In this document: positions 19,501 through 60,727 of the stretch, piece by piece
Layout of the letters: every line of letters begins with the position of its first letter
How positions within the stretch are numbered: position 1 is the first letter of the stretch
From: Monocercomonoides exilis PA203
Lineage: Eukaryota > Protista > Preaxostyla
Assembly (NCBI GenBank): GCA_001643675.2
Contig: LSRY02000004.1
Coordinates: forward strand, 992,001-1,056,000
Direction: 5' to 3'
DNA: 64,000 bases
Notes under the pieces: model-generated
The model's input: the letters and a program-made list of their open reading frames with translations, nothing else
What the model was told of the DNA's origin: nothing
Databases searched by the model: none
Made by a program: the position numbers and the translations under genes

Positions 19501-20860
19501 CATTTATTTTTCAAAAATGATTCTTAGATCTTCACCACAACTTTCATCCCTCCTTTTTCTGTGCTATAAGCACTTTTGTAACTGTTCATTGCACACTCAT
19601 CAAAAATGCGTTTTATGGAATTATCAAATGAGCCCTAAGCACTTACTCCATCCTTGTTTCATTCATTCATGTGCTCGAAAATTAACGGTCATTAACTTTT
19701 AACACAGGGATTCAATTTTTTGTTTGGCTGTTTTTTTCAATATTCTGAGTTGATGAAACGCTCATTCCTTTTTCAAGCTCAATCTCATTTATCGAAATCA
19801 TGCATCTCCTCCTTTTCCAACAATCTGATTAATTCGAAACAAAAATACAAATATCACAGTTCAACTCATATAAAAACCTTTCACAAATCACAATTATATT
19901 AGTCGCTTTTCAAAACTTCAATTCAATGTTGAAACAAACTTTTTGAACGCATTAAATTCTGAGTAACAAGGTTGGAAAATAACTATATTTTTTAATTGGA
20001 TTTTTTGCATTCGAAAAGATTTGTTGAGTTCAAAGTCTATATATAATTCTTGCTTTTTGTTTTATTATCATCGAAATGACAAGAAACTTTATTTGAAAAG
20101 AGTTTTCAAACTTCGAAAACATTAGTTTATTTAGCAGTTAAAAAAAAATCATTTTTCTGAAATATCTTTGAAAGTTTATTTTTTTGAACACAAAAACAAA
20201 AATTAAAATATTCAACAATTTGATAGAGAGAAATATTGATTTCAAAAACGTTATTTGTGCATTCTTTATTCTCAAACTAATCTTTGAAATAATGCGGAAA
20301 ATATTAAATCGAGAAATTCCAATATTACAGCGTGCTGATTTCTTGAAGTTGGAAAAAGGAAAATCTGAAGTTTAATTCATTTGTAAAATAAAGAACAAAA
20401 AGTTAATGATCAATTTATTTCGCTTTATCACTTTTTAGCCAGTTTGAAGATTCAAAAAGTTAAAATCTCACACATTTGTTTAGAATGCTTATAATTTGAA
20501 AATGCCATTCATCTGATACGAGTGTACTCAAAAATTCAGCCAGAAAGGATTATTTCTCCAACAATAAAAAGATCAATTTTGTAATTATGGTGCTTTTATA
20601 CGATAAAAATGAATACTCGAAATAGGTTATTTTTATATTTTATAATTAAAAATTAATAATGACAAAAATATTAAAAAGTCACCAAAATTTCCTAATACAG
20701 TGAAAAAATCGAAAAAATGCGATCTCAACATTGCACATCATCTTCGACCGACACATAAATCAAAAAAATCTCTTGTCGCAAAGGCTAAATAAAAAAAAAA
20801 AAAAAAACACTCACACTGTATAATAAAGAGAGACATAGTATATCAGCTATGGATCCATCT

Positions 20861-21117
20861 GGGTGATTATTTTTGAAATCATAACTTTTTTCGGGGTGTT
20901 GATTATATGAAAATTCATTATCATTTGCTGAATAATTGTCATTTAAACATTAAAAGTTTATCATTCGTTTCAAAAGCCAAAGTTTGACTTGAAATAATTG
21001 AAGCTGCATCATTATAAATAAATCAATAACTTTTCATGGTCCATTTATGAATATTCTTTTCAAATTTTCGTACCGATATTTTTGACAGAAAAAATATGAT
21101 TTCGAAAATAATCACCC
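20861..21117. mobile_element. 257-bp MITE, Sola2-like (GGG termini, 4-bp TSD atct)
   Basis: TIR gggtgattatttttgaaatcata / tatgatttcgaaaataatcaccc. TSD atct at 20857-60 and 21118-21. The empty site is visible at ~42695. Confidence 0.9.
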
Positions 21118-21550
21118 ATCTCGATTAGGTCAATCAATATTATCGATTTATGTGTATCTGATGGTTGTTATCATCTTGTATAATAAGTTGGAATAGGCAA
21201 TGATAACAAGATGGAGATCGAGAGTTATTGCTAATATTCTTAGGGGTTTCTCATGATTAGATATTCAGTGATGTTCTATAAAGAAGGAGTTATTGATTGG
21301 TGTAATCGATGTGTATCTATAGCTGACATACCATATCTCCTAGGAGAAGAATTAGCTAAAGAATTAGCTGAAAGTGTTCAAGTTGGTGAATTAGTGGTGA
21401 AATTGTGTGAAAATTGGTGTTTTCGTTGATGAAATACATGTGTTGAACATGTGTTGAATGTGTTGATGTTACCGTTGGTGAAATCATCGGTATTATCGTT
21501 TGTGAAATCGTAAATAAAAATAATTGATTTTGTTTTTTGTTTTATAGTAA

Positions 21551-21763
21551 ATGGGTCGGAAGAAGATATACGCAACTGTGGAAGAAGCGAAAGCGGCTCA
21601 ACAGAAACAAATTAAACAGTTTCAGGAAAAACGTAAAGAAGAAACTAAGTGTTACAACGAACATGTATCTGAAAAACAGAAGAAGTTGATTAAGATATTG
21701 AGGAGAAAGCTTATCGAAAGTGATGAGCTGTTAGATGAGTTGATGGAAAAAGTTAATGGGTAA
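21551..21763 (+). CDS. Small basic/coiled-coil protein encoded in the element TIR (70 aa)
   Basis: Identical to 43129-43341. MGRKKIYATVEEAKAA motif, A/T-rich upstream region and TAAATG start context. Confidence 0.6.
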   Translation: MGRKKIYATVEEAKAAQQKQIKQFQEKRKEETKCYNEHVSEKQKKLIKILRRKLIESDELLDELMEKVNG

Positions 21764-22114
21764 GTTGAATGTGTTTATTTTTGGTTGATTTCGCAGTGAA
21801 TTGTTTTGCCTGGACAGGTTAAGGTGGACAGGTGATGTGAGCGATGCTGCGGCGTGGAAATATTGGGTGAAATCTCCGTGCTGGAGAGAGGACAGGTGGA
21901 CAGGACTGGACAGGATAAATTATATTCTCCAAAATATGTGGACAAACGGGCAAACTGAGTAAAGTGGGCAAAATACATTTAATGTGAAAATTAACTGTTT
22001 CCCGTCAAAGTTCGACATCAACCTCGACGTCATCTTCCCCGTAAATGCACGTTTCAAAAATAAATCTGTTTCAAAAAATTTTTGTTATTTTTAATTTTTA
22101 TAAAATTGGCAACC

Positions 22115-22642
22115 ATGAGCAAAAGTGTAACCGAAATTATCAGTAACAACATCAAAACTGTTCAACTACTTATTAGCATGGATGAAAAAACATTGATTGA
22201 AAGAATTGATTCTTTCGTAGAAGATATATACAATTATCAAAAGCATGATGGAGGTAGTGTCTCTGTTTTTACTGGAAGAGCAGTATTGGTGAACAAAGTG
22301 CCAAATTTAACTGTTATAAACATTGACATTAACAAATCGTTAGACGACGAGTCCAAACAATCTGTTAGATCAAAGACGTTAAATAAACTGGACGAAGACG
22401 ACGTTGTTGTTCAAACAGCTTCATGGGGATTACACATTTATGCAAATACCGATGAATTTTCGCCAACTCCAACGGAATGATTAAATGTTTCACTTGCGAT
22501 GAATTTGATGTAGATATCATGACATCGTTGGATGAGAGCAAACGATCATTAATATTATGACCAAACAGTAAAGTGCGTAAGGATCATTGATCAAAAACAA
22601 ATGTTTATCAGCTTGTAAGAGGTTCGTTTGACTCAGCAATAA
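22115..22642 (+). pseudogene. N-terminal primase-polymerase part of a diverged primase-helicase gene
   Basis: FTGRAV..TVINIDINKSL..VQTASWGLHIYA aligns with HTGKAV..CVVDVDFNKSL..VQTDHGGFHIYC of the complete copy. Confidence 0.75.
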
Positions 22643-23000
22643 CCATCGTTCTTAAACCCGGTTCTTTTTCTAATACCAGGACTAAACAAAAATCTTTCAC
22701 ATTTTAATTTCTCAATCATTCCTGAAATTTGTTCATCTAATTTCAAATAATCGTTCTCAAAATTCAAACATTTGGATTTCATTGTATTTTTTAATCTAAT
22801 GTCAATGATTGCCAAAAATTGAAGAAACAACGAAATATTTCAGAAAAGACAAACAACTATATTGCAAATTGTGAAACATGAAGATATATTCTGAAACAGA
22901 TAATATGGAATTTATTTATGCTGAAACAAATTTGATCGAATGAATTTCATTTCCTTTTTTGAAATTTCATTATTTAAGTCGAAAGATCAAAACCATTAAA

Positions 23001-29049: not shown

Positions 29050-29443
29050 CAGAAATCAATTAAGGAAATTGCTGAGCAACATTAATGAGCCAAATGAGAA
29101 GAGTTTGAATTATGTGAAAACATTAAACAAGTATGAATTGAGAGAAAGAAAAGTTATGAAAAAGCGACTTTTAATTTCGTACGATGATGATGCAAACTTT
29201 GCGAAGAATTTTAGTAATATTTTGATTTTTATTGTTCTTTCCAATTCAATTAACTTCTTGAAAAAGTGTGTGTGTTTTGTCTTTTTCGTGAATAGATAAA
29301 AAGATTGTTATTAATTTGGATGTTTTGATTTTAATTCAAAAAAGATAATTAAAATTCACTTTAAACTTAAAGAAAATTCGTGTGAATAATTAAAGAAGAA
29401 TATTCCCTAGTTTTAGAAAAAGTACCGGGTTTTAGAACGATGG

Positions 29444-30150
29444 AACACGAAATGTTAATGAAATATTAAACGATCTCTCATTGAAACTGTATTCAAAAAA
29501 CATCTGATGAAATAGATAATATTGTAAAATTAGATAACGACAATGACAATATCAGTGACGAATTAGCTAATGTTTTAGTCAATAGATTGGAGTGTTTTGT
29601 CATACATAACAATGCGGGAAATATGCCAATCAACAGAGAAGTCACGTTTTTCACACTGTTTCAGGCAATTAATTAATTACCGAATGAGTATATAGAATTA
29701 GCTTACGACAGAGTACAAAACAGTGACAATTTAACTGCTAACGCACGTAATAACTATTATGTGGCAAAACAACGATACAGATGTTTGAGAACATTGCCAT
29801 TTGTATTAGTTAAGATGTACAAAATATGGAATAATGACTTTTTCACAAACGAGATATTACCGTAACTGAGAAACGACAGCAATATCGTTAAACCATTAGA
29901 TATGTCTGATTCGTTTTCCATGACAGACATTCGAAGAAAAGCTGAGACAAAACAATATAAAAACACCGATGATGTTATAAGTGAATTGTCAAGAGTTATC
30001 AGATTTATTGAAACAGGTGCGATGTATATACAAAAAAATTTCTATATATTCGATAAAAGTTGGTGTATAACGTTTGTTACAGACACAATTATGACACTTT
30101 ATTAAAAGATGACAAAACTGTGGAAAACTGAACATAAAACAACAACAGCA
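29444..30150 (+). pseudogene. Continuation of the disrupted primase-helicase gene (central region)
   Basis: IHNNAG, LTANA, FVLVKMYKIWN and DSFSMTDIRRKA..QY align with IHNDTG, LTANA, FVLQKIVKRWN and SSFSFSEIRDKA..QY of ORF 43785. Several stops. Confidence 0.8.
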
Positions 30151-30929
30151 TATGACATTCAACTGTCTTGTTTGTCGAAACAAACCTTGCATGGTGCTAT
30201 GTTTAACGCAAAAGATACAGCTAATGTGGTTCTTTATTTTTGATATCATAAAAAAAGATTAATAATCGGAAAAAAAAAACAAAATTATGGGCTGTTGTGA
30301 TCAATCAGTTTTTTGATAAGGATAAATTGTTTTTCGAAAATATACAAAAATATCAACAAAATATCCTTTTTGCATTAATTTAAAGAAAGATATTTTTTAC
30401 CTGAACATTTTTGAATGATTCATTTTTTAAAAAAAAAACAATAAAATATTTTTTTAAAATAAGAATGGTTTTCAAATTTTTTTATCATTAAATGTTTTTC
30501 AAAAGATGTTTATTAATGAACAAAATATGACATTATTTATTTATTGATTTATTTTTTCTTCGTTCAGAGATATATATTTTTTAAGTTAAAAAATGTTTTT
30601 CAATTCAAAATCAATTTTTCTTTCATATTAGATTTCTTTGGAGGAAATATTTTTTTGAAAATAACTTATAACCTTTTATTGTTGTTAACCAACGAATAAA
30701 TAAATAATAAACAATTATTCACAGAGTTGAATTTATTTTTAATTTTGAATTATCATTTATTCAAAATAAGAGTCTTTAAATAAATATTCTAACAATGGTT
30801 TATTATCATTATTTAAAAAAAAAAGAAAGAAAATTAATTGAAAATAAAAATTTGTTTTTTTGCAATTAAGAAAATTCTCAAAAATAAATATCAAAAACAA
30901 AAATAATAAGAATTATGATTTTTCAACTT

Positions 30930-34499: not shown

Positions 34500-35990
34500 T
34501 TTATCATATTAATAAAAATATTTGAAATAATAAAAAGAAATCTGTTGTGAACGGTTATTCTGCATTCCTGTTCGTGTTAAGGCAAATGATAGAGCTATTA
34601 TTTCTTTTTTTGTTCCAATAAGAAAATAATTATGCAATTGTATTAAAAAGATTGAAATTATATTGAGCCAAATACCGTGATGAAAAATGGGATTTTCTGA
34701 TAAACAAATAAAAAAACCAATTGTAGTGAAAATAAAGGAAATGCATGACACAGCTTAGAGTGATTGCTCTCAAACCAAAGATGCAAGCGAAAAAATGGAT
34801 TAATAATTATTTCTAAGAAAATGATGCTCAATATATCTTTGTTACTTATAAATTTTTCGTTTCTGATAACTTCGTTGTTTTTCCTTATAAATGAACAAAT
34901 ATAAAACAAGCTAAACAATCTCGTTGGTAAAAATACAGGAATGGTTTTTCCTAATAGTTGTTTTATTCTTCTGGTATGGGCTAAATATGAAAATTCTAGA
35001 AATTTGATTTGAAGATTTGAAAGAAATGGAAATTTTCTAAAAGAAGAGGAGATAACTAAATTTGGAAGATGATTTCATCAGAAAATGCAAATAGGGGCAA
35101 TCAATGAGCACGATTAACGAGTAACGCTGTCTTTCAAACATTGGACAGAAATGTTTTCAACAGCTTTTTTTTTTGAGCAGAAAAACAATCACAGCAGAAA
35201 CTTCTCATAATTGATTTGTGGGTTGATATTTTTTTAAACAAGGCTCAAAATAAATTGTTCGTATTCATGCGCAGTTGAACATGAAGGATATAAACCCCAG
35301 AAAAATGGAGATGATCGAAGTGATAGTGTTGCAACAGTCACAACCGTATACTGTTTGTTTGCTGCAGTAGCTCCATCCAACAAAATACAAAGTCCGTTGT
35401 TTGTAATTCTTGTCTGCTTTTCCAGTTGCATTTGACTTTTTTGTTTCTGTACCATAAAACAGACTCTTCGCCTTGATAATTTTGGGAATATCGACGACAC
35501 CGGAACAGATGGATTTTTTTGACTAATCTGAATTAATGAAGATATGAAATCATTTGTTTCTTTTGACGATGCCGAAAGAAAAGAAATGTTTGATTTGCAA
35601 ATCATTTTCACATACAATTGTTCCAATTCAGATAGTTGATCCGATGAACCTGTGAAGCACTCAAAACTCAATTTTATTTGTTTTGCTCTCTGCAGTTTTT
35701 CCATCATTGTTGATATTTGATTTGTGTTAAGTATTAAGCAACGATGATTAGCAATTGTTGAATAATTTTTGCGACCTGAAACCCCACATGGAAATCCATC
35801 CCTGCTGTTTGGACATAAGCAACACTTATGCCAGTCTTTCCTGGGTTCACAGTTCTTGTCCATTTTGTTATAAGATATCCATAAGTTATCTTCCACGATT
35901 TCAAACGAAATTTTTTTCCATGAATTTGTCTGATTTCTAAAATTGTATGTAAAATTTTGCAATAAAAACTGAAAAAGTTTTTAAAAACGG
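34500..35990 (-). pseudogene. Degraded hAT-like transposase, paralog of 12885-15836
   Basis: LCPNSRDGFPCGVSGRK..ANHRC, FISSLIQISQKNPS and CILLDG, then fragments ICSFIRK, PFFRLHLWFE and LSFALTRTG that align with the first hAT. Confidence 0.8.
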
Positions 35991-36190
35991 AAATTGAAAT
36001 GTCTGTGAAAATGTATTCAACAATCATCTCACACCACAGGACGAAAATTTGAGTTACGAAGTAATTCCATTTTTATTATTTGACAGTTTGCTTTTTGAAA
36101 CTCTTGTATTTTTGCTTTATAAGCATTAGCCTTGAAAATACATTTATTATAAAACAAAAAATAATTTCGAAAACGCTTACAATAAATATA

Positions 36191-36432
36191 TGTCAAAATT
36201 TTTTTGAAAAGTTCCATTTGTTTAATTTTCAAATAAAATAAAATTTTAATATTTTGATCATATTTCCGTTCCCGCTCACCAAATTTCGCTGTCATGAAAA
36301 CAATATCTTGACATTGTTTTTATTTCCATTTGAGTGAAGTCCCGTGAGTGAGAACTGATATTTAATCGAAATATGAAATTTTTATTTTATTTTAAAATTT
36401 AACAAAATGAACTTTTCAAAAAAATTCTGACA
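36191..36432. mobile_element. ~242-bp fold-back MITE (family B)
   Basis: Long imperfect palindrome tgtcaaaatttttttgaaaagttcc...gaacttttcaaaaaaattctgaca. Other copies at 51805, 60484 and 61685. Confidence 0.75.
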
Positions 36433-37739
36433 TATATATATTTAAATGATTCAAGTCAGAATTTCTTTGAAACTCAGAAATGAGATTTTTCAATGAACGC
36501 AAAGTTAAATTGAAACAAAAAAAATATTTTTTTTTTGATTCAACCTTTTCAGATTGTTTTTCCAATAGCTCAAAAAAATATTTCTTTCAAACAATTCCTT
36601 AATCAAGAGAAGTTTTCACACTTATATCTTTTTTGAAAAAATCAAAAATGCAGCGAAACTTCGAAAATCTTAAAAGAAATATAAATAAAGTGATATATAT
36701 GTTTTTTATTATCACATTCAAACTTTCAAACAAAAGGAAAAAAAGTTTCACGAGATACAAAACATATTTATAGGAATTATATTTTCAATTGCAAACAATG
36801 ATTTTTTTCTGTAATTTATTTTTCATATAATCACAAAGAAAAAATTAAATATGAATTTATGCGCCTTGCATCGGCACACAATTCAGAAGCTAATGTTCAT
36901 ACGAAAGTCACAATACTCAAGACTGTATGTCTTGAATATTCATTTCATCAGCTGCAAGATTTTTGATTCCGCTGCACGCAAGGAAATTACAATTATTCCA
37001 AGCAAAGCAACTCTTCAACGTCTTTTGAAATATCTCATACACAAAATCCAAAAATGCCTCCTTCGAAAAGAAGTTTGCTTTTCGTATTTTTTTTTTTTTT
37101 TTTATTTTAACTTTTTTTAAAAATGAATAAGAACTTAGCAACGAAGAAGAAAAGAGATTTTCAGAATTTATTTCTGCTAATTCGACAGAATCATCTGAAT
37201 GATCACGAAGAATCATTTCTTCCAAAAATAGTTTGCAGTATTATGAAATTTTGATTAAAAGAATATTAAAATTTTGAAAAAATATTTTTTTTTTCATAGA
37301 GGTGAATTTTGCAAATGTCAATGATTTTGCGATCTTGAATGGGGAAGAAAACATGGAAATAGAGATTGATCCATTGGAAGATTATTTTCAAGAAAATTGC
37401 GATTTTGAAGAGAACATTATTATCTCTGGAACACACATCGATACACATCCAATGGTTAGCAATGTCTTTTCAGATATTAAAGAAATTTCAAGGACAAATA
37501 TTTATCTTCGAGAAGGAGATACTAATATTTCTTTGAACCATTATCAAAGTTCTCCTATTGAGAACAATTGTGGGAATAAGGAAAATGAAAAGATTTTAAA
37601 AAATCTTGATCCTTGCATACAAATGCATGCAGAAGACGACATAATCAAAAGCAATTCTTCTGAATTGATGATGGACGTTACAAACATATCGATCAGAATA
37701 TGGTTATCGATAAGGAACTTGTCATTCGTGTTAATCAAA

Positions 37740-38600: not shown

Positions 38601-39209
38601 GCATAACAACAGTGATGAAAGTGCAAATAAATATGAGATCTCATTTTATCCTTTCTGTGAACAAAAAAACAGACAGCAATGTTGACTAAATTGTGACAGA
38701 CATTTTTTCGCCTAATTTGCTTTCTGTCATTTTTCGAACGATTCTTATCATTCAATCAACTATCAAAACTCTCACTCATTTCATGATGATGTTGCTTATC
38801 AAGAAAGCAATGAAGAGGAAAGGCAAAATAGAGTTCAATCACTTCATCCACATAATTCAATATCAAAAAACTTCACTTCACCAACAGATATATCACTAGT
38901 GAATCATCTTTGATAACTCAACCACTTCATTATCCTCAGGTTTCAACAGCGTCCTTCTCTTCATCATCACAATCAAAATCAAACAACACTTCAGATGAAA
39001 ATTGCGACAATTTTGCGAACATTTAATTTCATAATAAGCATATTCATCATTCTCCAACATATCGGAAAGACGCAAATGCTCCCAAAAATGCTTCGTTCAA
39101 CAATTTTGAATCAATTCATAGAAACAATTATTCTCCAAACAACATTTTCAAACATGTTCCAAATGTTTCAATCGATTCTTCAAAACAGTCATTTTCGACA
39201 AGAAATCCA

Positions 39210-40130
39210 GTGAACAACACCGATGTCAGAGAATTTGGAGTAACTCTCTTTAATTCACATGAACAAGAAAAATTCCAACACTCAAAGCAACCTGTTCGAA
39301 TTATTAACATTCCAAAATCAGAATTGCATGAAAAGTTTGTTAGTAAAACAAAGATAAAGTTGTCAAAAAGTCAATTCTACAAAAGTTCCCGATGCATAAA
39401 AAGGGCAACGAGGAGAACGGACGTCTGTGTTTTGTTTGAGGTGTACTCTTCACTAAAGAATAAGGAGAAGCTTTTATTCCAACGATCTGAACAACTTAAC
39501 AATGAAGAGAAAGCAACGAAAAGACTGATTGAAAAACACAGAATATTGGCCAACAACCAACAACAATACTTTCGACATTCGAAAAATAACTTTAAGTCGG
39601 ATGAGGTGTTATTTCTATTTGACTGCAAAGAAAACTGGTCCTTGCCAATGAGAAGGAACCAAACAAGTGGAGATTTCTTCAACAAAGTTGAAGTGTCTCA
39701 ATTCTGTGTTATCGATTACTTTAAAAATGAAAACGAAAACAAAGTGAAACACATTTTCAACTTTTTTTCTAACGTTTTGTCCCATGACTACAAGTTCACA
39801 ATAGAATGTCTACAACAATTTTTATCAAATCCGATTCTCGAAAAAAAGAAAGTATTTCGATTCATGTGTGATACAGGATCACATTTCCGAAACTCTCAAC
39901 TGATGTACTTTCTTCTTTTAAACAATTCTTTGTTTGCAAAGGATAAAACAAAATCTTTGTCATTTTTCTGTGAAAAGCACAGAATATTTGAGTGTTACTG
40001 AGAGTTTGAAAATCTGTCAAGGTGCATCAATAATAAACTGGACAATAACTGTGCTTTTATCGAAATAGACGATATTGTTGTATTTTTTGAACGAAATTCA
40101 AACAACACTCTATTCTTCAAAGAAAAGGAT
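39210..40130 (+). pseudogene. Sola2-like DDD transposase, degraded
   Basis: RRTDVC, FLFDCKENW, FSNVLSHD, FMCDTGSHFRN and FFCEKH motifs. Paralog of 56369-57301. Confidence 0.75.
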
Positions 40131-43128
40131 TTTTTCAATTGTTCCAAAACATTTCGTTGTGTTTCATGAATATTGTTCTCGATTGACATTTTTGTTTTAT
40201 TTTTAAATTTAACAAAACACTGATCCTGTAACCACAAAAAAAAAAAAAAAAAAAAGCTGTTTCAAGTTTTGCTCATTGAATCAAATTTTTGAAGCAAATA
40301 CGAAAAATAAATTTTTATCAAGAAGAAATGAAATATAATCGCATTTTCTATTATGCACATTTGTTGAAATCACATTTTTCTGTGCAAGATGATTTTTTTT
40401 CCTTTGTTATTTATTTCTCATTACATATGAGCACAATTATTAATATCAATAATTGCTCCGGTTGTAAGCAATTTTAAAAACATTATTGTATTAGAAATTA
40501 GTTTTTCCAACAAATATTTTAAGTTTCGTTGTTGTTGGAAAAAACAAATACTTAAAATAAATACGTGATAATTTTTTCTTTCAATATTGAAATATTTATT
40601 CTGATTGCGTTGAAAATATTCTAAAAAATTTTCCAACCTTGGGTCTTTTTTTAAAAAAAATTCATTTAGAAAATATTACAGGTGAAAATGAAGATTAAGT
40701 ATTTTAATCACATCCACATTCTAACTCACCAAAAATCATCAGCATAAATTCAAATACTTGACAATGTTGTTTAATCCAATCAGATGAATTTTTGTGAGTT
40801 GGAATAAAAATTTATAAATATTCTCAATTTTCATTTTCACCAATAATTTTTTCAAAGAGATTTTTTCTATTAAAGATGCAAATGTTTAATATTAATCAAA
40901 AATTTGATATTTCGAAAATGATCACTCAAATTATTTATAACTTATTTCAAAATTTCAAAAACAAAATACATGTTTCATTTTTATTTACAAATTTTTTGAT
41001 AAATATAATCAACAAACTTTCGTTTTTCACATGGGTGATAGTTTTTCTTATCGTAACTTTGTTCGAAGAATGATCTTTTTTTTCATAATTGTGGTATGAA
41101 ATGAAAAAGGCAAAAATACATGTTTATAAATGAATAGAAAAAGAATCTTGAGTGAATTTTTGAAAACCAAGTTGCCTTGAGAAAATACAAAAAAATTCCA
41201 TTATTACATTAATTTATTGAGTTATTATTAATATTTTATTTATTTGATATCACGACCTCCTACAAGTCCAGTTATTGATTATGAAAGAATATTATTTGTG
41301 TATGATAAAATGATATTACTTTTTTAATGATTCGAATTAACGATTATCTGAAAATAAATGATTGATTGATTTATAAAATTTAGAAGCGAAATAGTGAGGC
41401 TTATTATTTTGTGTTATATTTTTCAAAAAACTTTTTTTGATGCCATGAATGATTCATACTAAATTGTGAAGTTTGTGATGTCTAAGTTGAAATATTTTGT
41501 TTGCAATAATGAGATATACATATCCCAGATGAACTGGCTGACAAGAAAACAGATATTTTTTTTGAGACACAAGTGAAAAAAGAATGAGCGTGAATATCAA
41601 AAATAAATAGAGGTGTGGATAATTATTTTTTATTTCATTAATTTTTGTTAAAAAAAGATTTAATAAGGTGTTTAAAGTCAATCCGCATGCGTAATTTGAA
41701 AATAGACAGCTTTTGAAGCGAACCTGAAATGCTTGCAGAAGGCAGCAGATGAATTGCATGAAAAGGATTGAAGAAAAAAAATGAAAGAAATGAATAGAAA
41801 AGATTAAATTTGCAATGCTCATATCGCGAAACGAAAAGATGGAGTCGAAGTGATTGAAGTGAGAGAGCGAAATTGATGATAAGGCAGAAGGAGGAGTGCT
41901 GCGGAAGTTGAGAAGAAGAATGTAATTTTTCTGAACTTCAACGAAAAAAGAAAATTTGATGAAGAGAAATAAGATGAAAGAAAATTTGGGAAATGATTTT
42001 TTGAGAGATATATGAAGAAAAGTGGGAAAGGGGGAAGTGGACGAGATATAAAAGTGCGGAAGTTGATATGGAGTGCGTCTGTTAAGATGAAGGAGTAGCG
42101 GAAAAGACGATAACTATGAAAATAACGGCAACAACGACCTCGAAGAAGAAAAAGAGGAGGAGGATAAAGAAGAAGGAGAAAGTGTCAGCGCTTTTTGGCC
42201 TCTTTTTTTGCTTCTTTCAGTGACTCTGGTGGAGAAGCAAGTTTTTTCTGATGGGAGAATAGAAAAAGACCTGCCTTCAGAAAAGATCAGAGAAGCAGAT
42301 AAAACAAAGAACGATAGCAGTTTTATTCGGAAGTGCTCACACAATGTTGCACTTTCACTTCGCTTCCAACTCTTCAAGGCACCTGAAGGCACCTGAAGGA
42401 GAAGTGAATTTTCAAGGATAATTTAAGTTTCAGAGCAAAAACTATCTTCACAAAATGATGCATTTGAAGAAGCAGCAGCAAAAGAAGATGATGTTGGAAA
42501 AGCGAAACAAGCGTGTTGGACTCGAACATTGCAATAAGATTCATTGTTTCCATCACGAAAGAGAAGAATATTCTGCTTATTTGAACGTAGAAGAAAGCAA
42601 CAGCGAAACATCCAATTCTCATTCAGAATCTGCATTTTGTCGTAACATGTTAAAAGACTCTTGAACAAAAGATATGGTATATCAGCTATAGATCCATCTT
42701 GATTAGGTCAATCAATATTATCGATTTATGTGTATCTGATGGTTGTTATCATCTTGTATAATAAGTTGGAATAGGCAATGATAACAAGATGGAGATCGAG
42801 AGTTATTGCTAATATTCTTAGGGGTTTCTCATGATTAGATATTCAGTGATGTTCTATAAAGAAGGAGTTATTGATTGGTGTAATCGATGTGTATCTATAG
42901 CTGACATACCATATCTCCTAGGAGAAGAATTAGCTAAAGAATTAGCTGAAAGTGTTCAAGTTGGTGAATTAGTGGTGAAATTGTGTGAAAATTGGTGTTT
43001 TCGTTGATGAAATACATGTGTTGAACATGTGTTGAATGTGTTGATGTTACCGTTGGTGAAATCATCGGTATTATCGTTTGTGAAATCGTAAATAAAAATA
43101 ATTGATTTTGTTTTTTGTTTTATAGTAA

Positions 43129-43341
43129 ATGGGTCGGAAGAAGATATACGCAACTGTGGAAGAAGCGAAAGCGGCTCAACAGAAACAAATTAAACAGTTT
43201 CAGGAAAAACGTAAAGAAGAAACTAAGTGTTACAACGAACATGTATCTGAAAAACAGAAGAAGTTGATTAAGATATTGAGGAGAAAGCTTATCGAAAGTG
43301 ATGAGCTGTTAGATGAGTTGATGGAAAAAGTTAATGGGTAA
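43129..43341 (+). CDS. TIR-encoded small protein (70 aa)
   Basis: Three copies in the window, all with an intact ORF. Confidence 0.6.
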   Translation: MGRKKIYATVEEAKAAQQKQIKQFQEKRKEETKCYNEHVSEKQKKLIKILRRKLIESDELLDELMEKVNG

Positions 43342-43684
43342 GTTGAATGTGTTTATTTTTGGTTGATTTCGCAGTGAATTGTTTTGCCTGGACAGGTTAA
43401 GGTGGACAGGTGATGTGAGCGATGCTGCGGCGTGGAAATATTGGGTGAAATCTCCGTGCTGGAGAGAGGACAGGTGGACAGGACTGGACAGGATAAATTA
43501 TATTCTCCAAAATATGTGGACAAACGGGCAAACTGAGTAAAGTGGGCAAAATACATTTAATGTGAAAATTAACTGTTTCCCGTCAAAGTTCGACATCAAC
43601 CTCGACGTCATCTTCCCCGTAAATGCACGTTTCAAAAATAAATCTGTTTCAAAAAATCTTTGTTTTTTTTTTAATTTTTATAAA

Positions 43685-46046
43685 ATGACAAACCCCCAAA
43701 CAGACACTGGCAACGTGATCCAACAACTAATTGATTCAATTTCAACAGAACAGCAAACGCTGGGAGAACGAATGAAAGATCACCTTGTTGACTTGTTCGA
43801 CTACAAGAAATACTCTGACAAGAAGCAGGGCCAACGACACACTGGAAAAGCTGTCGATATCAGCAAATGTGAGGATTTTTGTGTCGTTGATGTTGATTTT
43901 AACAAATCCCTTCAAGCTGAACAAACGAAAACCATCAGGAATTCCATTCTCGAGTAACCCCCCCCCCCCCCCCCCCCCCCCCCGAAACGTCGGACTTGTA
44001 CAAACAGATCATGGTGGTTTTCACATTTATTGTGAGCTGTGTGGTTATCCCCTTAAATGTTTGTCACAAACCAAAGTGTTCACGAGTCCAGAGTACGATA
44101 TCGACATTTTTGCAGGCATTGGAGATCGAAAACAGAGGCTTGAAGTTCAAGCTGACTTTTCATACAGAGAGATGAAAGATGGCAAGAGAATCATCACCAA
44201 ATACATTCCCCTCAACAATTACAGACAGCTAACAGATCTTTCATCACTCGAGAGTGTTCTTGACGTTTTCGGTATTGATCTCAAAACAGAGAATACATCA
44301 GCGACAATGGCAGCTGAACCACACAATCTTCTCACACAAGATGGTGTCGTTGATTTGTCTCCAACTGTCGCTCTTGCTCTTGTTGATGGACTCAAAGATG
44401 TTGAAATACATAACGATACAGGTTCTCTGTCACTTGATTCTGAGTTAACTCTTTTACCGTTATTTGCAGCTCTCAACTCTCTCGTCAACATAAACGGTTT
44501 CGACGACCAATCGATAGATTTTCTTTACAATCAAATCAGAAAGACAGCTGCTCTAACAGCAAATGCAATCACTCACTTTGAAGAAAAACGAAACAGATAC
44601 AGAGATGACAAGTCACATCTATTTGTTCTACAAAAGATTGTCAAGAGATGGAATCCATCATTTTACAACGATGTGATCATTCCACTCCTCAGAAAAGAGA
44701 ATGAGCAAAAGGAAGAACCTCCACGAGAGATAACTGTTCATGAAATTGATCTCAACTCATCGTTCTCGTTCTCTGAAATCAGGGATAAAGCTTGTCGAAA
44801 ACAATACTCCTCACTGTCTGAAGTCGCCGAAGATCTCATAAAAGTTCTGAGGTTTGTTGAAGCAAGGATGGAATTTATTGTAAAAGAGTTTGACATTCAC
44901 TCCTCTTGTTATTCAATAACATTCAAGACAAAATCAGCAATGTACGAACTGTTCAAAACAATAAAACTGTGGCATGATGACAAAAAGACTCTCACAGTTG
45001 AGACAGCTTTCGAACAATACTCTCATGTTCTGTCGATCGATGGAGTGAAGTTCTTCTCAGATAACCCTCAAATATTCTCCCTGTTCCATGGGTTCAAATA
45101 CCAAATGGTAAACGAACAAAATGACGAAATCATCAAACCATTCCTCGATTTCACACGAGAAGTTATCGCCAATGACAACGATGAACTCTATCAATACATC
45201 CTCTGTTGGATTGCGTCAATTGTTCAAAATCCTGGTAAAAAAGCAGAAACATCACTTGTTCTCAAAGGTTTGCAAGGTATTGGAAAGAATGTCTGGACAA
45301 ATGAACTTGCTGAACTATTGGCAGGATATTCATGTTCAAATGTCACAGAGATTGCAGAACTGACAGGACAGTTCAACTCCATCGTCGAAGGGAAAATGCT
45401 CATTGTACTTAACGAATTGAAGAATGTTGGAGATGATCGAACAGCTAACTTCGATGCCTTGAAGAGTATAATCACAGATTCAACAATCAGAATCAATGAG
45501 AAGAATCAGCCAAGAAGAACAGCTGAGAATGTAGCTAATTTCATATTTGTGACAAATCACACATACCCGGTAAAGATTGAGATTGGTGACAGCAGATATG
45601 TTGTTTGTGATTGTGACTCAAAATATAAGAACAATCTCACATTCTACAAGGATTTCACTAACTCTTTCGATAATGAATTCTAAGAACAACTTCTCTGTTA
45701 TTTCATCAGCAAAGATCTCACCAATTTCAACACTAGAGCTTTTCCAACAACGGAAGCAAAGGAAGATATCATTGCAGCATCACTCTCTGTCATCGATGTA
45801 TTCTGTCAGGAGCATTACAACAAACTCAAAGAAGTGCGGGGATGTTCTGAAGCACTATGTTTCAGACCAGTTGAATACAAGAACGATCGCTCATTCCAAC
45901 TAGCAATTAAAGACAGATGTGAGAGAACACGAGTAGGTGGAAGAGGAAATCAAGTGTGGTGTTATAAACTCAAGCCAGAGTATGAACAACTCCTCAAACG
46001 ACGTGAAGATGAAGATGACATTGATTGTTCTGCGGAAATTAACTAA
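43685..46046 (+). pseudogene. AEP primase-polymerase fused to a D5-like superfamily-3 helicase; disrupted at 43955-43983 (TAA plus C26) and 45681 (TAA)
   Basis: Prim-pol motifs VVDVD and QTDHGGFHIY. SF3 Walker A LKGLQGIGKN, Walker B LIVLNE and motif C FIFVTN. The C-terminal ORF 45834-46046 is in the same frame. Confidence 0.85.
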
Positions 46047-46246
46047 ACACATTCGTTTATTTGGAATCATAAATACACAAACGATACAACTTGTGTGCCA
46101 CTGACGATTCCATGTGGCAATGTGGCAAAATGATGATACAGTCGAAAATAAATAAAAACCCTCAAAATCATGACAAATTAGGGGTAAAATGCTCATGTTG
46201 GCAGAAATAGCATGTTGGCAGCTCTTTTCAGATGAAATTAAAAGAT

Positions 46247-46278
46247 CCGGACTACCGGACTACCGGACTACCGGACTA
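46247..46278. repeat. (CCGGACTA)x4 iteron-like tandem repeat
   Basis: Directly visible, GC-rich, adjacent to the 30-bp inner inverted repeat. Confidence 0.9.
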
Positions 46279-46570
46279 CGCTTCCAGCACGGAGATTTTA
46301 CCCAATATTTCCCTTCCCCAAGCATCTCGATACTGCCACAATTTGGTATCCGGTCTGCCGGTTGACACTTTTTCAAGCTAAATACACCAAAATAAACCAC
46401 AAATCAAGTGAAAAACATCGATGTGGCAATCCACCATAATGCCATTTGTTCAAAAAATATAGGTGTTGACAATCAACTATAATGTTATCTTGACTACTGT
46501 TTGATACAATCTACGATACAACGAACGTGTGTAGTCTGTTATATTTCGTCAATTAACACATTTTACTCAA

Positions 46571-46801
46571 TCATCCCGGTGCAGGCAAATAACCATTAAC
46601 TTTTTCCATCAACTCATCTAACAGCTCATCACTTTCGATAAGCTTTCTCCTCAATATCTTAATCAACTTCTTCTGTTTTTCAGATACATGTTCGTTGTAA
46701 CACTTAGTTTCTTCTTTACGTTTTTCCTGAAACTGTTTAATTTGTTTCTGTTGAGCCGCTTTCGCTTCTTCCACAGTTGCGTATATCTTCTTCCGACCCA
46801 T
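46571..46801 (-). CDS. TIR-encoded small protein, right-TIR copy (76 aa, different C-terminus)
   Basis: Same as 43129-43341 but reads past the TIR boundary (..VNGYLPAPG). Confidence 0.6.
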   Translation of the reverse strand: MGRKKIYATVEEAKAAQQKQIKQFQEKRKEETKCYNEHVSEKQKKLIKILRRKLIESDELLDELMEKVNGYLPAPG

Positions 46802-49155
46802 TTACTATAAAACAAAAAACAAAATCAATTATTTTTATTTACGATTTCACAAACGATAATACCGATGATTTCACCAACGGTAACATCAACACATTCAACA
46901 CATGTTCAACACATGTATTTCATCAACGAAAACACCAATTTTCACACAATTTCACCACTAATTCACCAACTTGAACACTTTCAGCTAATTCTTTAGCTAA
47001 TTCTTCTCCTAGGAGATATGGTATGTCAGCTATAGATACACATCGATTACACCAATCAATAACTCCTTCTTTATAGAACATCACTGAATATCTAATCATG
47101 AGAAACCCCTAAGAATATTAGCAATAACTCTCGATCTCCATCTTGTTATCATTGCCTATTCCAACTTATTATACAAGATGATAACAACCATCAGATACAC
47201 ATAAATCGATAATATTGATTGACCTAATCAAGATGGATTTAGAGCTGATATACCATATATATTGAACATCCTGCTCCAACGACTTGCTTTTAACTCATAT
47301 TTCTTCTTCTTTTCATTCTTCTTCCTCTTGTTCTCCTTTTTCACAACATACAAATTCACATTAGTATCTGCATCAGCACGCCCAGTTCTTCAAGACACAC
47401 TCGAAGACAACTGATCTGTGGGGAAACAGCAGACACTGTCGTAGACTGTTCATCAACAACCCTTCATCCTGCAGAACTTTCTGTTCCACGACCACCTTCC
47501 TGTTTCTGAACTGCAAGCAGTTGGAAGAGTTGAATGGAAGCCCAATTTTGAAGTTTGAAAGGAGGAATGCGATTGGAAGGGAGAGCAAAGGCTGTGGTTG
47601 ATGCCATCATGATGACGACAACAATGCTGATCATAGTGAAGAGTTGGACGGAATAAAAGAAATGGATATTTCATACAATGATAATGAGAGATTAGAAGAT
47701 GCTGACGCGCTTCGTGAAGATGATGATGAATCTGGTGATCTGCATCTACCTCCGTCTGGATAGCAAACACGCTATCCGCACAAACAAAAAAATATAGCCG
47801 CTCAAGTCTTCGTCGTTATCAACAACACTATAGCTGTCACCATCACAACCATAACCGAGTAAATTCATCTGCCTCTTTATCCTTCAATCTCTTCCAGCTC
47901 ATCTTCCACTCTTTCTGCAGGAAACAGGAGCACCATCCCCGCACTCATTGCAGCATGCATCTTTAGGATCCCTTTTTGTAAGGACATACGGGTTAACCAT
48001 GCACAGTGACTGTCAAAAGCATCTTTTGCAGCAGCAGAAGAGTTCAGAAGCTGAGGAGAGAAGGAGACAATTTGCAATTCAGTTGATCCAGAAGCTAATG
48101 TTTGTGCCTCGTGCGGACGAGGGATTGGCTGCTGAGGAAGGGCTGGCTGTGGAAGACCAGATAACTGGGCAGTCAGCACAGCAGCAGCAGAACAGGATGT
48201 CGTAGATGCAGCAAAAGAGTGTGCCTAACCAGAGTGAGCAGTTTTCACTGTGCGAATACAACATTGATGACAGTCTGGTTCAAATAAGCGAAGAAGAGGC
48301 TGTGGGACTGCAAAATGGAAGCATTCAGCAGAAGATTGACGCAATGAAAAAGCATCCACTCAACAAAAACACAGAAGTCAATCCTTCGCAGTTCATGTTC
48401 CATATTTACGAACAGCCGGCGAATCTCCTACTTCATTTGCTGTGTGCGAGCTGTTTGACTAAAAAAGAAAAAGATGAAGAAGAAAATGATGGGGAGGATG
48501 AAGAAGCAAACGATGATTATGAAGAGGAATTGAAAGAAAAAGAGAAAGATGGTTCAAAGAAAATTAATGGTAAAACAACGAAATCTGCACAAAAGAGGAG
48601 ACATGAAGAAAAAAAATACTATATGGTCCATTTCCTCTCACAACGATAGTGATAATGAATCAGAACTCAGCTTTGGATCAGTCAAGATCAAAAATGGAGA
48701 AAACGGTAGCAACAACAACCAAAACTTCTTAAGAACAACGAAGACGAAGCAGAAGATGAGCAGACAGCCATTGTCATCCGTACTTCGTTTGTCTCACTGC
48801 TGCTTTCATTTCATTCTCTTTTTTGTTTTTTTCGCTTCCATATTTCATCCATTTTCTTTTTGCTTCTTCCTGTTCTGTTCGACCAGGGGTATGCTCTTCT
48901 GTCACAACTGCTGGTCTCTTTTGTGCAGCTGAAGGAGTTAATCTGCCTCCTCAGTCATGTCGATTCAGCTGACGCGCTCTAAAAGTTTCTCTCTCCAAGC
49001 GAACACGTTGTGCTTGCTCTGCTGAAGAGGCTGGTATCATCATTGGTTGATGAAGAATAAGAGGAGAAGAGGAGAGTGAGGGCAGATGAGTTCGCAGATA
49101 AGGATAGAGTTGAGAAGGAGAAGGAGAAGGAGGAGGATTAAAAATAGGAAGAAAA

Positions 49156-49834
49156 GAAGAAGAAGAAGAAGAAGAAGAAAATGATGATGATAACGAAGAT
49201 GATGATGAAGTGAAAGTTGAAAGAGTTTTCCTTCTTTCATTTCTGAGAGCAGAATAATATGTCTTGTGAGTTGATGTATTGCCTGATGGATATCTTCTTT
49301 TATCATCTTCATACCCATCATTATCATAATCATCTCCTTTTTCATTTAAACCTTCTTTTTAATCTTGACATCTTTTTTTTTTTTTGCTTTCACCTCTGCC
49401 TCTCTTTTCATCTCCTTTTTCTCTCTCTTTTCTCTTCCTTCAGCTCTTCTATCATCATTTTCACACAACTTTCATTTGAAAATTGGACAAGCGGTTTCAA
49501 GGCAGGCGAGTTGAGGAATTTCCTGCAGCAGATTAGATGGAGCGATGGAGAAGGCGAAGAAAAGAGAGAGAAAAAGGAGATGAAAAGAGAGGCAGAGGTG
49601 AAAGCAAAAAAAAAAAAAAGATGTCAAGATTAAAAAGAAGGTTTAAATGAAAAAGGAGATGATTATGATAATGATGGGTATGAAGATGATAAAAGAAGAT
49701 ATCCATCAGGCAATACATCAACTCACAAGACATATTATTCTGCTCTCAGAAATGAAAGAAGGAAAACTCTTTCAACTTTCACTTCATCATCATCTTCGTT
49801 ATCATCATCATTTTCTTCTTCTTCTTCTTCTTCT
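49156..49834. repeat. Inverted duplication, ~285-bp arms with ~110-bp spacer
   Basis: 49156-~49441 is the reverse complement of ~49550-49834; mirrored ORFs appear in the track. Confidence 0.9.
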
Positions 49835-51804
49835 TTCTTGCCTTTACAGCGCAATCAGACCAAGCTGTTTTCTCTGTGCTCTTTTCCTGCTCTGCTTCTG
49901 TCCATTTTCTCTTGATGTGTAGCAGAAAAAGCAGCAGCGCTTATCCCCTTGTCTTCTGTTATTCATCGTCTGTCTGTGCGGCAGAAGATTTCTTTGTCTT
50001 CTTCTTTTTCACTCTTCCACTACGCAGCTTCTTTGTGGATAAGGCTCATTCATTACGACCTGCCTCTGTCTCCGATATTCGGAAAGAAAAAAGAGGAAGC
50101 TTTGTTCATCTTCAAATATTCCTCTAATTTCAATCGTCAATTTGCATTTCTTCAATAATATTCATCCAATTTTCTTTTTCACTTCAGTTTCAATTTATAA
50201 CTTCATATTCTGCATTTTAAACAATATTGTTTCGCTTTATCAATTATTTGAAGGATATCTTCTTCAACTTAATCATTTATTTTTCGCTGTCTCATCTGCA
50301 ATGTTGATTTATTCTTTTCGAAATCCAATATTTATTTTGTAAATCACATCTTTTCCATTCGCATCTAATATTTCCTTTGGCTCTTTCCTCTATTTGTCAT
50401 TTTCTTTTCATCATCAACCTTCTTCCATAACCCTTCTCAAAAGCCGTATTTCCTCATCTCATATGTTCGAATAGGCTGAGAACATTTGCAAAAAGATCCT
50501 GATGTTATGAAAATTAAAATGATTGAAAAACAAAAATACACACCTCTAATTATTATTTCCCTTGGAAATATTTATTCTTCTTTCGCTGATTTTTCTGGAA
50601 AATTACGATACTTCGAATAGATAAGTTTTTAACTTCACTTTCTCTTTATGTATCATTTGCAATGCCAGTAATTCCCAAGAACTACAAAAATCGCTCAAAA
50701 TCGAATATTCCTATTTTATAACATTAATGATATTGTATAAAAAAAAACACAAAATAATAAGCCTCACTATTTCGCTTCTAAATTTTATAAATCAATCAAT
50801 CATTTATTTTCAGATAATCGTTAATTCGAATCATTAAAAAAGTAATATCATTTTATCATACACAAATAATATTCTTTCATAATCAATAACTGGACTTGTA
50901 GGAGGTCGTGATATCAAATAAATAAAATATTAATAATAACTCAATAAATTAATGTAATAATGGAATTTTTTTGTATTTTCTCAAGGCAACTTGGTTTTCA
51001 AAAATTCACTCAAGATTCTTTTTCTATTCATTTATAAACATGTATTTTTGCCTTTTTCATTTCATACCACAATTATGAAAAAAAAGATCATTCTTCGAAC
51101 AAAGTTACGATATGAAAAATAATCGCCAATATTGTTTTTCATCAATTACCATTCGAACACACAATTTATCTATCTTCACATTAAAAACAATATACATAAA
51201 GTTATATCCATAAATTGATCAATAAATTATAGGTTTATCAAACTGAAATCACAGATATTGCATAAAATATCGGACATCGCACAAAATACCGGACAAGATC
51301 GTTTTCTCAATAACAAGTCAAAGAGAAAATCAGATTATATTCCTCAAAAGATATCTAAACAATACAAACTCATTTGGCATAACAGACTTTCATTATCGTG
51401 CAGACTGAATAGTTAAGAAATAATTTTCGAAATCTCGTAAAAAAACTCGAACCTGCTTCTTTTTGATTTTGAAGATAATTTTTTTTGAAAAATACTCTAT
51501 CAACAGAAAAATGCAAGTCTGATATACCAAATGGGGGAAAATACAGACTTTCAAGCATTCTTTGCACAAGGCATTGAAAAATTGCTTCACTCATAACTTT
51601 ATTTCACTTTCTCAGATTTCAAAACAAATTCGATTTTCATATCCGAAAACAGGCATCGTTAAAATCAATACATAAAATTTTCCAACATTTCACGAATGTC
51701 ATAAAATGGACCCATCTTTAATGTGTTTTTTGACCTAAAAAGTCACGAAAAGTGCATGATTTTTGCAATGAAAATGCCTGAAGTCAAATATTTTTTCACA
51801 TATA

Positions 51805-52043
51805 TGTATATTTTTTGAAAACTTCATTTTGTTTAATTTCCAAATAAAATTTAAATTTCAAATTTTCAACAATTTTCTGTTCCCACTCACGAAACTTCAT
51901 AAAAATGGAAACAAAACCAAAACAATGATATTATTTCCATTATTGTGAAGTTTCATGAGAGAGAACAGAAAATTGATTGAAATCTGACATTTTCATTTTA
52001 TCTGAAAATTAAACAAAAGGAACTTTTCAAAAAAATTTTGACA
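51805..52043. mobile_element. Fold-back MITE family B copy
   Basis: Similar to 36191-36432. Confidence 0.65.
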
Positions 52044-52461
52044 TGTATTTGAAAAATCTTCATTAAAACGCATTTTTCACTTGCGAAATTAATTTTTTTC
52101 GTTAATACACATTATTTTAACTTTTTTGAGCACATATTTGAAAAAGCGAAAAATAGAAATTTTAGATCAAAAAATCGAGTTTTGAATGAAAAAATAACCC
52201 ATAATAATATAAAATGTGATTATATATATTTAGCCCTGTGATTATATGCGATGAAAAATGAATGAAAAATAGGCCAAAAATGTCGATGCATCGAAAAATG
52301 TGACAATATACGAATGTGATTAAATTCGACGTGATTATGTCCTGTTTTGACTGTATTTAATATTATTATTAAAGTCACTAGTTATATTATTTCAGCACTA
52401 ATGGATTATTAAAATTAATATATAAATAAATTGGATTTAAGATCATTACCATAATTAAAAA

Positions 52462-53737: not shown

Positions 53738-53994
53738 GGGTGATTATATAAGTTAACGTAACTTTTTTCTGGTGCAATTTTTTCGAAAATTGTTTTGTTT
53801 TTTATAGAGATTTTGTATTTTAATGAAATTTTTTTTTTTAATCATTCCAAATACAAATGTATTGGTTGTAATAAAAATGAAAACTTCTTCAATAAAACTT
53901 TTCACTTTTCTCTATTCCTTTGTTAATATTTAAAAGAATATTTTGAACCGAAATTTTTTATTATAAAAAAATTTGATTTCAAAAATAATCATCC
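53738..53994. mobile_element. 257-bp Sola2-like MITE copy
   Basis: gggtgattat...aaataatcatcc with TSD aaat; same length as 20861-21117. Confidence 0.75.
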
Positions 53995-60300: not shown

Positions 60301-60483
60301 ATTCATTCAACTAAATCAAATTATAATTTTCAACATTGTGAATGGTGGTTAAAGCGAAATAAAACTGAAAGCAGTGAAAATGAAAGAAAATACAAAAAGT
60401 TTTTAATAAACTAGTCGGATGATGATATTGATTATCAGAACAACACATCATTCTTGACAGTTGAACGCATTTCTTTACCCACA

Positions 60484-60727
60484 TGGCCAAATTTTTTTTT
60501 AAAGTTTCTTTTGTATAATTTTCAAATAGAATAAAAAATTTCATATTTCGATCAAATATCTGTTCCCACTTTCCTTATTTCGCTGTCATGGAAACAAAAT
60601 CTTGACAATGTGAAAATTTACATACTGGTGAAAGTTGGTGAGTAGGAATAAAATTTTAAAGAAAATATTTAATTTTCATTTTCATATGAAAATTAAACAA
60701 AAGGAACTTTTCAATTAGATTTGGCCA
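60484..60727. mobile_element. Fold-back MITE family B copy (diverged)
   Basis: Similar to 36191-36432; tggcca at both ends. Confidence 0.6.

Follow-up and report, generated by a model that had tools for sequence, protein, structure and literature searches.

In a 64,000-bp stretch of the Monocercomonoides exilis PA203 genome (contig LSRY02000004.1 of assembly GCA_001643675.2, positions 992,001–1,056,000; hereafter the window), we analyzed a 4,595-bp element at 42668–47262, which consists of two terminal inverted repeats (TIRs) of 673 bp each and one central gene for a primase-polymerase (Prim-Pol) of the archaeo-eukaryotic primase (AEP) type, joined to a superfamily 3 (SF3) helicase. With a probability of roughly 0.58, we read the element as a reduced, non-autonomous derivative of a metamonad Maverick (Polinton) resembling TvMav3 of Trichomonas vaginalis, which would copy itself and be inserted in trans by the integrase of a helper.

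Boundaries, Inverted Repeats, and Target Site

The original prediction, made from the letters of the window alone, had placed the element at 42667–47261; alignment of the two ends in symmetric register kept the element and moved both boundaries by one base. The inverted arms (42666–43340 and 46590–47264) are 99% complementary, with five mismatches between the TIRs, which confirms the near-perfect repeats of ~670 bp that had been described. Concerning the target-site duplication (TSD), for which 6–7 bp had been proposed, the 6-bp version TGAACA was found on both sides (Table 1); the 7-bp version ttgaaca matches as well because the last base of the element equals the flanking base. A matching 6-mer would arise by chance with a probability of 0.0004 at a fixed site and 0.0037 with five registers. 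The family terminus, derived from 11 contigs, reads AGAGATATGGTATATCAGCTATAGAT. A 6-bp TSD and (AG)n termini mark Mavericks (PMC8097293); the Maverick-type TSD of the earlier claim was recovered, as was an AG terminus, in the form of the family end AGAGATATGG with two AG units. The outer ~250-bp unit of the TIR is predicted to fold back on itself (z = −6.2; equal stability in 0 of 200 shuffles), and in the predicted fold its 3' end would pair nearly flush. No host open reading frame (ORF) clearly broken by the insertion was found.

All contig evidence stems from assembled contigs of four DNA runs (X1–X4) of one sample. Single-copy contigs cross the left junction with host DNA (42463–42721 in X3; 42227–42730 in X4) as well as the right junction (47200–48026 in X1; 47209–48500 in X2), in each case with 0 differences. 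These contigs, together with the exact TSD and with arm tips that differ from each other, argue against an assembly or polishing artefact as the origin of the inverted arms. An artefact is very improbable in our view, although a run of 26 C within the gene is a typical site of long-read or polishing errors and the similarity of the arms exceeds the family average.

Table 1. Features of the element, its target site, and the related copy 2 (positions refer to the window).
Feature	Coordinates	Strand	Remark
Left TSD	42662..42667	.	TGAACA; sequence
Left TIR, 673 bp	42668..43340	+	family terminus AGAGATATGG, decayed to AAAGATATGG in the window copy
Terminal ~250-bp unit	42668..42918	.	both ends form a 48-bp imperfect inverted repeat (83%); folds back as single-stranded DNA
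70-aa basic/coiled ORF in left TIR	43129..43341	+	T-rich leader ending TAAATG
Left spacer	43341..43684	+	in other copies, a variable block that adjoins the TIR on its inner side; joints 21750–21766 to 21845–21924 on the arm of copy 2, which is identical
Prim-Pol and SF3 helicase gene, pseudogene in the window copy	43685..46046	+	83–91% identical to intact P0001
AEP Prim-Pol domain (pRN1 ORF904/NrS-1 type)	43760..44294	+	DxD and GxH motifs; fold match of the P0001 model
Lesion 1: stop 43955–43957, 26-C run 43958–43983, frameshift	43955..43983	+	sequence
SF3 (NrS-1/D5-like) helicase module and C-terminal domain	44805..45974	+	DUF5906, E 2.5e-21; fold match
Lesion 2: in-frame stop	45681..45683	+	private to the window copy
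Right spacer	46047..46589	+	4 x CCGGACTA; 30-bp block in common with the left spacer, inverted
76-aa version of the TIR ORF	46571..46801	-	sequence
Right TIR	46590..47262	-	own fold-back unit 47012–47262
Right TSD	47263..47268	.	TGAACA; sequence
Related copy 2, left arm	20829..22106	+	99.5% identical to copy 1 over 993 bp; begins AGAGACATAG
Copy 2 gene, N-terminal Prim-Pol part	22117..22644	+	decayed, parabasalid-type clade
Copy 2 gene, middle part	29458..30264	+	beyond ~6.8 kb of nested transposons

A Predicted Prim-Pol and SF3 Helicase as the Central Protein

A protein search with the element's gene product returned 98 matches among 7,995 candidates. The best matches came from M. exilis itself (11 clusters and five more members, representing ~15 loci), followed by T. 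vaginalis (one cluster with 198 members, 43% identical over 99% of the query), Histomonas meleagridis, 14 records of Streblomastix strix, and many gut metagenome proteins. One Histomonas homologue is located on a contig of 3,678 bp. Two of the 16 M. exilis records, P0001 and P0099, are full length and probably represent one gene; the intact primase-helicase that the original prediction called for in the family is represented by this paralogue. Another M. exilis record, P0072, belongs to a third primase-helicase lineage that is ~40% identical to that of the window copy (family 1).

To characterize the protein, 64 of the 98 matches were aligned (A1), and a structure model of P0001 with a mean pLDDT of 87 was obtained from this alignment. 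In the model, residues 26–197 match the primase-polymerase of pRN1 (3m1m: Z 9.9, rmsd 3.3, 151 aligned; 1ro2: Z 9.5) and the NrS-1 Prim-Pol (6a9w: Z 7.9), and residues 368–757 match the NrS-1 helicase (6k9c: Z 26.5), SaPI5 PriRep (Z 18.9), and vaccinia D5 (Z 16.4). Atlas returned Prim-Pol clusters at 0.96–0.97 with PF09250 on 13–33% of the cluster members, and within the 25 Pfam families shown for A1, PF09250 was matched in none of the 64 members at E 0.05. Conservation in A1 is nearly complete for what we take to be, by established usage, the catalytic motifs, i.e., the DxD motif (64/64) and the His (63/64) of the Prim-Pol, the Walker A Lys (63/64), and the NE of Walker B, the Asn of motif C, and an Arg pair (64/64 each). 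Judged by the model, the gene encodes an AEP Prim-Pol and SF3 replicase of the pRN1/NrS-1 type, and the single central gene of the original prediction stands on concordant fold, Atlas, and motif evidence. In replicases of the pRN1/NrS-1 type, this combination of folds is known to be sufficient for replication without a protein primer.

By its sequence, the window copy is dead. The two stops noted earlier were located at 43955–43957 and 45681–45683, and a previously unmentioned frameshift lies at the 26-C run, whose length is provisional because contigs break at the homopolymer. The second stop is private to this copy, as 3,123 of 3,336 contig depth units at 45683 carry another base in X1. Furthermore, the invariant Arg630 of the helicase is substituted. 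Stop-codon reassignment was considered and rejected, since the paralogues have different residues opposite the two stops and the second stop is private.

An ORF of 70 aa had been reported in each TIR, which is correct for the left side; the right version has 76 aa. Its sole homologue found is MONOS_17995 of M. exilis, its best Atlas score is 0.85 (a lead only), and neither Pfam nor PHROG families nor the fetched Maverick-context loci gave a match. As stated in the original prediction, genes for further Maverick functions are missing. The 4,595 bp contain no ORF for a protein-primed DNA polymerase B (pPolB), a packaging ATPase, or a capsid protein, and a hidden Markov model (HMM) for rve (retroviral-type) integrases, built from 40 of 120 integrase matches, scored at best E 0.61 in 1,454 window peptides. 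When 34 ORFs from Polinton-context loci, including the pPolB of locus L161 described below, were compared to the window, only the primase-helicase matched. A Pfam scan covered the window ORFs apart from five others, and Rfam gave 0 matches.

Maverick Ancestry of the Gene and Candidate Helpers

A homologue lies on L161, a 9,384-bp gut contig binned into a bacterial metagenome-assembled genome (MAG). There, the full-length gene (40% identical) adjoins DUF4108, an 837-aa pPolB (PF03175, E 3.4e-10), and an A32-like ATPase (E 0.0023). The same neighborhood is known from TvMav3 of T. vaginalis, where 91.8% of 1,705 copies have a gene annotated as "primase" and 8.6% one annotated as "Poxvirus D5 protein", next to DUF4108 (PMC12289875); the gene set of this class-3 Maverick is also given in PMC7845603 (for background only, see 10.1101/2024.03.23.586382 and PMC6431247). 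Judging from gene names and from L161, and not from coordinates, the T. vaginalis homologues are probably these annotated TvMav3 genes. In two quick trees, of which the second left out P0066, the M. exilis gene grouped with S. strix (SH-aLRT support 90 and 100, respectively), inside a metamonad set that includes Maverick-context loci. By the context in L161 and the trees, the gene is placed as a metamonad Maverick gene, in agreement with the Maverick/Polinton ancestry that had been proposed. Both ORFs of the element have T-rich leaders ending in AAATG, as do most genes of L161; this is weak evidence and could be a host trait.

Mavericks or Polinton-like viruses (PLVs) that could serve as helpers are candidates within the same species because six genes for the major capsid protein (MCP) are reported for M. 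exilis (820 hits in S. strix; PMC10120064). Further relatives were sought in metagenomes, where a scan covering 37 of 64 parts gave helicase-only relatives, and 13 of 80 loci were examined. Their neighbors include A32 and HNH (L082), an rve integrase (L086, E 1.8e-4), and DUF4108 (L085). Scans of IMG/VR with P0001, P0025, and P0031 found no relative and a scan with the terminal motif gave 0 matches; in an alignment scan, the 80 retained of 342 matches were all helicase-only, with up to 35% identity. Short metagenome contigs around the gene were considered as a sign of single-gene elements. Their median excess was 595 bp in 55 rows, and the first 55 rows of an integrase control gave 1,277 bp; this comparison is confounded by assembly and cluster size and was not used.

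Some observations on these loci stand on their own. Both L161 and a second locus, L162, are Maverick-like DNA of protist origin that was assigned to bacterial and archaeal MAGs. The catalytic motif of pPolB is DTDS, and the L161 enzyme has QIDS at this position. Near the rve integrase of L086, a 546-aa ORF (4364–6001) without a family match is a possible capsid protein.

Dispersed Copies With Shared Ends

In X1, contig depth is 31–37 on the single-copy flanks and 1,283–11,435 over the element; in X2–X4, the corresponding values are about 3–11 and 37–307. Since contig depth is no copy number, we take these values only to mean that the element is present in many copies. Loose ends and joints of contigs were collected at 85% likeness, of which the best 15 of 52 joints and the best 24 of 531 loose ends are considered here as indicative. 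At 42670, 12, 6, 7, and 8 contigs from X1–X4, respectively, pass from the element into flanks that are unlike each other (agreement 0.50–0.58) but end in AG. The copies are dispersed and share their ends, as a non-autonomous Maverick derivative should.

Evidence for a conserved compact form is partial, as no single contig covers a whole copy. Diverged contigs join the end of the gene to the right spacer (45874–46215, 37 differences; X1, X2, and X4) and the TIR to the left spacer (43264–43531; X1). In addition, opposite-strand joints (43488–46092, 43561–46103, 43502–46576, 43566–46554, and 43570–46550) indicate other copies with a right TIR of 820–900 bp, some of which begin ~50 bp past the stop codon, and those at 46092 and 46103 tie this region to an inverted left arm, i.e., to further compact copies. 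The right spacer was also found joined to different 3' ends of the gene (loose ends before 46098/46104). Together, loose ends, bridging contigs, and joints are indicative of the multi-copy family with other compact members that had been foreseen.

These ends bear on two alternatives. According to the first, the element would be an integrase-independent mobile replicase, whose AEP-SF3 protein would place copies of its own locus at DNA breaks, as hypothesized for the replicases of polisuviruses (bioRxiv 10.64898/2026.10.13.758929, section 13). The lack of an integrase gene agrees with this idea, but sharp, conserved termini at many flanks and the exact 6-bp TSD point to an integrase and not to break repair, and we consider it improbable. 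The second is a composite, Pack-type cut-and-paste transposon: the terminal 250-bp unit would be a miniature inverted-repeat transposable element (MITE) of a host DDE family, an inverted pair of which captured a Maverick gene and was moved by the host transposase. Such an origin could explain the 48-bp inverted ends of the unit itself, in a window that is rich in MITEs and in remnants of DDE_1 and hAT transposons. However, the TIR extends 420 bp past the unit, and this further stretch holds an ORF whose T-rich leader is Maverick-like. Moreover, contig depth over the outer unit (about 6,300–10,900) is, as a rough guide, ~2x the combined depth of the gene families of copies 1 and 2, and not far above it as for a nearby true MITE. 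A composite origin has little probability on this evidence. Over the stretch of the 70-aa ORF, contig depth is ~3x higher, a level that could mask further elements.

Two Replicase Clades on One Arm

A related copy had been noted at 20827. It was recovered as copy 2, but it starts at 20829 (AGAGACATAG), contains a 257-bp MITE, and carries a different gene, which is 34–41% identical to family 1 and 45–57% identical to parabasalid and gut proteins. Its helicase part and right TIR are absent from the window. With breaks read as X, the copy 2 protein groups with parabasalid-type proteins, among them those of T. vaginalis, Histomonas, and L161; the forks that enclose it have support values of 93 and 98, and its exact place is unsupported. 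This gene family is multi-copy as well (contig depth 418–958). The arms of the two copies nevertheless share 957 consecutive identical bases that end at the start codon, so that two unrelated replicase lineages sit on one arm.

Within copy 1, the TIRs differ at 4 of 30 outer but only 1 of 643 inner positions (Fisher p 1.6e-5, with bins picked after viewing the data), and the outer 32 bases of copy 2 have four differences. This pattern suggests that arms and gene ends have been homogenized by recombination and that replicase cassettes have been exchanged, and the insertion is probably older than the TIR identity implies. Because the mismatches cluster at the tips, near-perfect TIRs are no sign of youth here, a warning that may apply wherever near-identical TIRs are taken to signal a young insertion.

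An ordinary internal deletion of a resident Maverick must be weighed at this point. The parental helper would then provide pPolB for copying as well as integration in trans, with the primase-helicase as a mere passenger. Primase and pPolB do occur together in L161 and TvMav3, and nearly all M. exilis copies of the gene are broken. The mosaic sister record P0002 has both gene ends of the window copy (identical and private to it) around a middle of ~90% identity and skips the region of lesion 1, a pattern expected if copying or conversion continues to involve dead copies. On the other hand, two unrelated replicase clades on one arm are not expected from the deletion of one parent, gene copies appear to outnumber capsid genes (~15 loci versus six MCP genes), and the 675-bp inverted arms are nearer in length to the TIRs of TvMav1 (500–700 bp) than to those of TvMav3 (100–130 bp; PMC12289875). 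Overall, we judge a simple deletion derivative to be rather unlikely.

Copy 2 is interrupted by other transposons. The MITE in its terminus (20861–21117; 257 bp, ends GGGTGATTAT...ATAATCACCC, 4-bp duplication ATCT) occurs with many flanks, and contig depth at its ends is very high; related ends lie at 41031/51130, 53739–53995, and 61212–61473. The gene is split by a ~6.8-kb TIR element (~22642–29446) with a decayed DDE_1 (pogo-like) transposase (22944–24577, E 1.4e-12), inside which lies a 4.5-kb element (24501–29046) with 211-bp TIRs that carries host-like beta-helix gene fragments.

A Model for Replication and Insertion

In the reading we prefer, that of a self-copying Maverick derivative, the excised linear DNA would be copied by the element's own protein, made by an intact copy, with a hexameric SF3 helicase opening the DNA and the Prim-Pol priming and extending without a terminal protein. 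The TIR, possibly through its 250-bp fold-back, may act as origin or primer; a nickase to resolve the hairpin is not encoded. A full-size Maverick or PLV of the same genome would supply the rve integrase, resulting in the 6-bp TSD and AG...CT ends. After insertion, copies would decay, gene conversion would keep the arms alike up to but excluding the tips, and arms or gene cassettes could be exchanged between families.

Several points weigh against this reading. A helper Maverick sharing the AGAGATATGG termini is hypothetical, and no named M. exilis integrase was found among the 120 listed of 327 integrase matches. The TSD was read in one copy only, as the right end of copy 2 is lost, and the consensus end AGAGAT comprises two AG units, whereas vertebrate Mavericks have (AG)3 or (AGT)2. 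The joints, at 85% likeness, can stem from repeats, and contig depth does not equal copy number. Both trees were quick searches with SH-aLRT values only, and the 957-bp arm identity could partly be a polishing artefact. Finally, because only 2 of 16 M. exilis records are full length, replication by the own protein is inseparable from passive carriage.

A bolder version is tentative: the family could be a self-standing class of 4- to 5-kb replicase-only satellites of metamonad Mavericks. These linear DNAs would be replicated by a Prim-Pol-helicase of their own, with the fold-back TIRs as origins, and would exploit the integrase of Mavericks and perhaps also their capsids. Replicase cassettes would be swapped, one of them having been acquired from a parabasalid-type Maverick. 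The presence of oxymonad-type and parabasalid-type replicases on one arm suggests exchange between Mavericks of co-resident gut protists. If this version were true, the family would provide, in dispersed and TSD-flanked form, the first proof of independent movement for AEP-SF3 replicases of the polisuvirus kind, and the satellites would be a vehicle for replicase turnover across these viruses. For the exchange of replication genes among PLVs, the 2026 preprint proposes independently mobile AEP replicases on the basis of one contig; a family in a cultured protist with a published chromosome-scale assembly makes the mobile-replicase idea directly testable.

Comparison With Known Systems

The element shares with TvMav3 and the Mavericks of gut protists the homologous primase-helicase, bounding TIRs, a Maverick-type TSD, an AG-like end, and T-rich leaders before ATG. 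It differs in size (4.6 kb versus 15–26 kb) and in TIR length, and it lacks pPolB, integrase, ATPase, and capsid genes. Compared to an autonomous Maverick/Polinton, the pPolB, the rve integrase, the packaging ATPase and capsid genes, and the size of 15–25 kb are missing, the long TIRs and the 6-bp TSD are present, and the (AG)n terminus has a partial counterpart in the two AG units of the family end.

A likeness to transpovirons had been proposed in the original prediction. These are also small, capsid-less, TIR-ended DNAs that encode a helicase and are regarded as reduced PLVs in need of a helper, but they have 6–8 genes on ~7 kb, a Tlr1-like SF1 helicase fused to an inactive pPolB, and an association with mimiviruses (PMC5499653, PMC3671162). 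As the helicase of the nuclear, multi-copy element with its 6-bp TSD is SF3, joined to a Prim-Pol, and not SF1, the element is not a transpoviron, and this comparison was dropped.

The same fold combination as in the element's protein occurs in the primase-polymerase-helicases of pRN1 (ORF904) and phage NrS-1 and in SaPI PriRep satellites. Unlike the element, these are prokaryotic circular plasmids, phages, or satellites without long TIRs or eukaryotic integration. Closer in organization are an AEP-only polisuvirus element, which the 2026 preprint describes in section 13 along with Bodo saltans virus and its 11 additional AEP-SF3 genes, and the replicative end module of PLVs, in which the TIR is proposed as origin for the adjacent primase-helicase and replicase turnover occurs (PMC11296320). 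Both have a repeat-bracketed AEP(-SF3) replicase apart from capsid genes. The AEP-only element is a single contig with a hypothesis, whereas the M. exilis family is dispersed, has a TSD and conserved termini, and combines one arm with replicases of two clades. Because the idea of an AEP-only mobile element was already raised there, we regard the element as a variant and not, as had been suggested, as a wholly undescribed class. No earlier description of this family was found in the literature searched, whose scope lay outside Repbase and most subscription journals. The part of the M. exilis genome paper considered here (PMC8767320) presents a chromosome-scale assembly with 35% unclassified repeats, and its main text there makes no mention of Mavericks or viruses.

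Other Features of the Window

A pair of 392-bp inverted repeats (98%) at 41031–51130 encloses 10 kb that hold the element and a near-perfect palindrome of 679 bp (49157–49835); by this arrangement, a larger Pack-type transposon may enclose the element. A decayed hAT-like transposase lies at 12792–15836 (Dimer_Tnp_hAT, E 2.4e-4), with a similar N-terminal fragment near 35234–35980. Self-inverted MITE-like repeats of ~250 bp, 72–81% alike, occur at 36186–36458, 51800–52056, 60483–60750, and 61665–61948. Furthermore, two related ORFs at 39027–40001 and 56342–57301 resemble decayed transposases and contain the motifs RRTDVC and RRTDLC.

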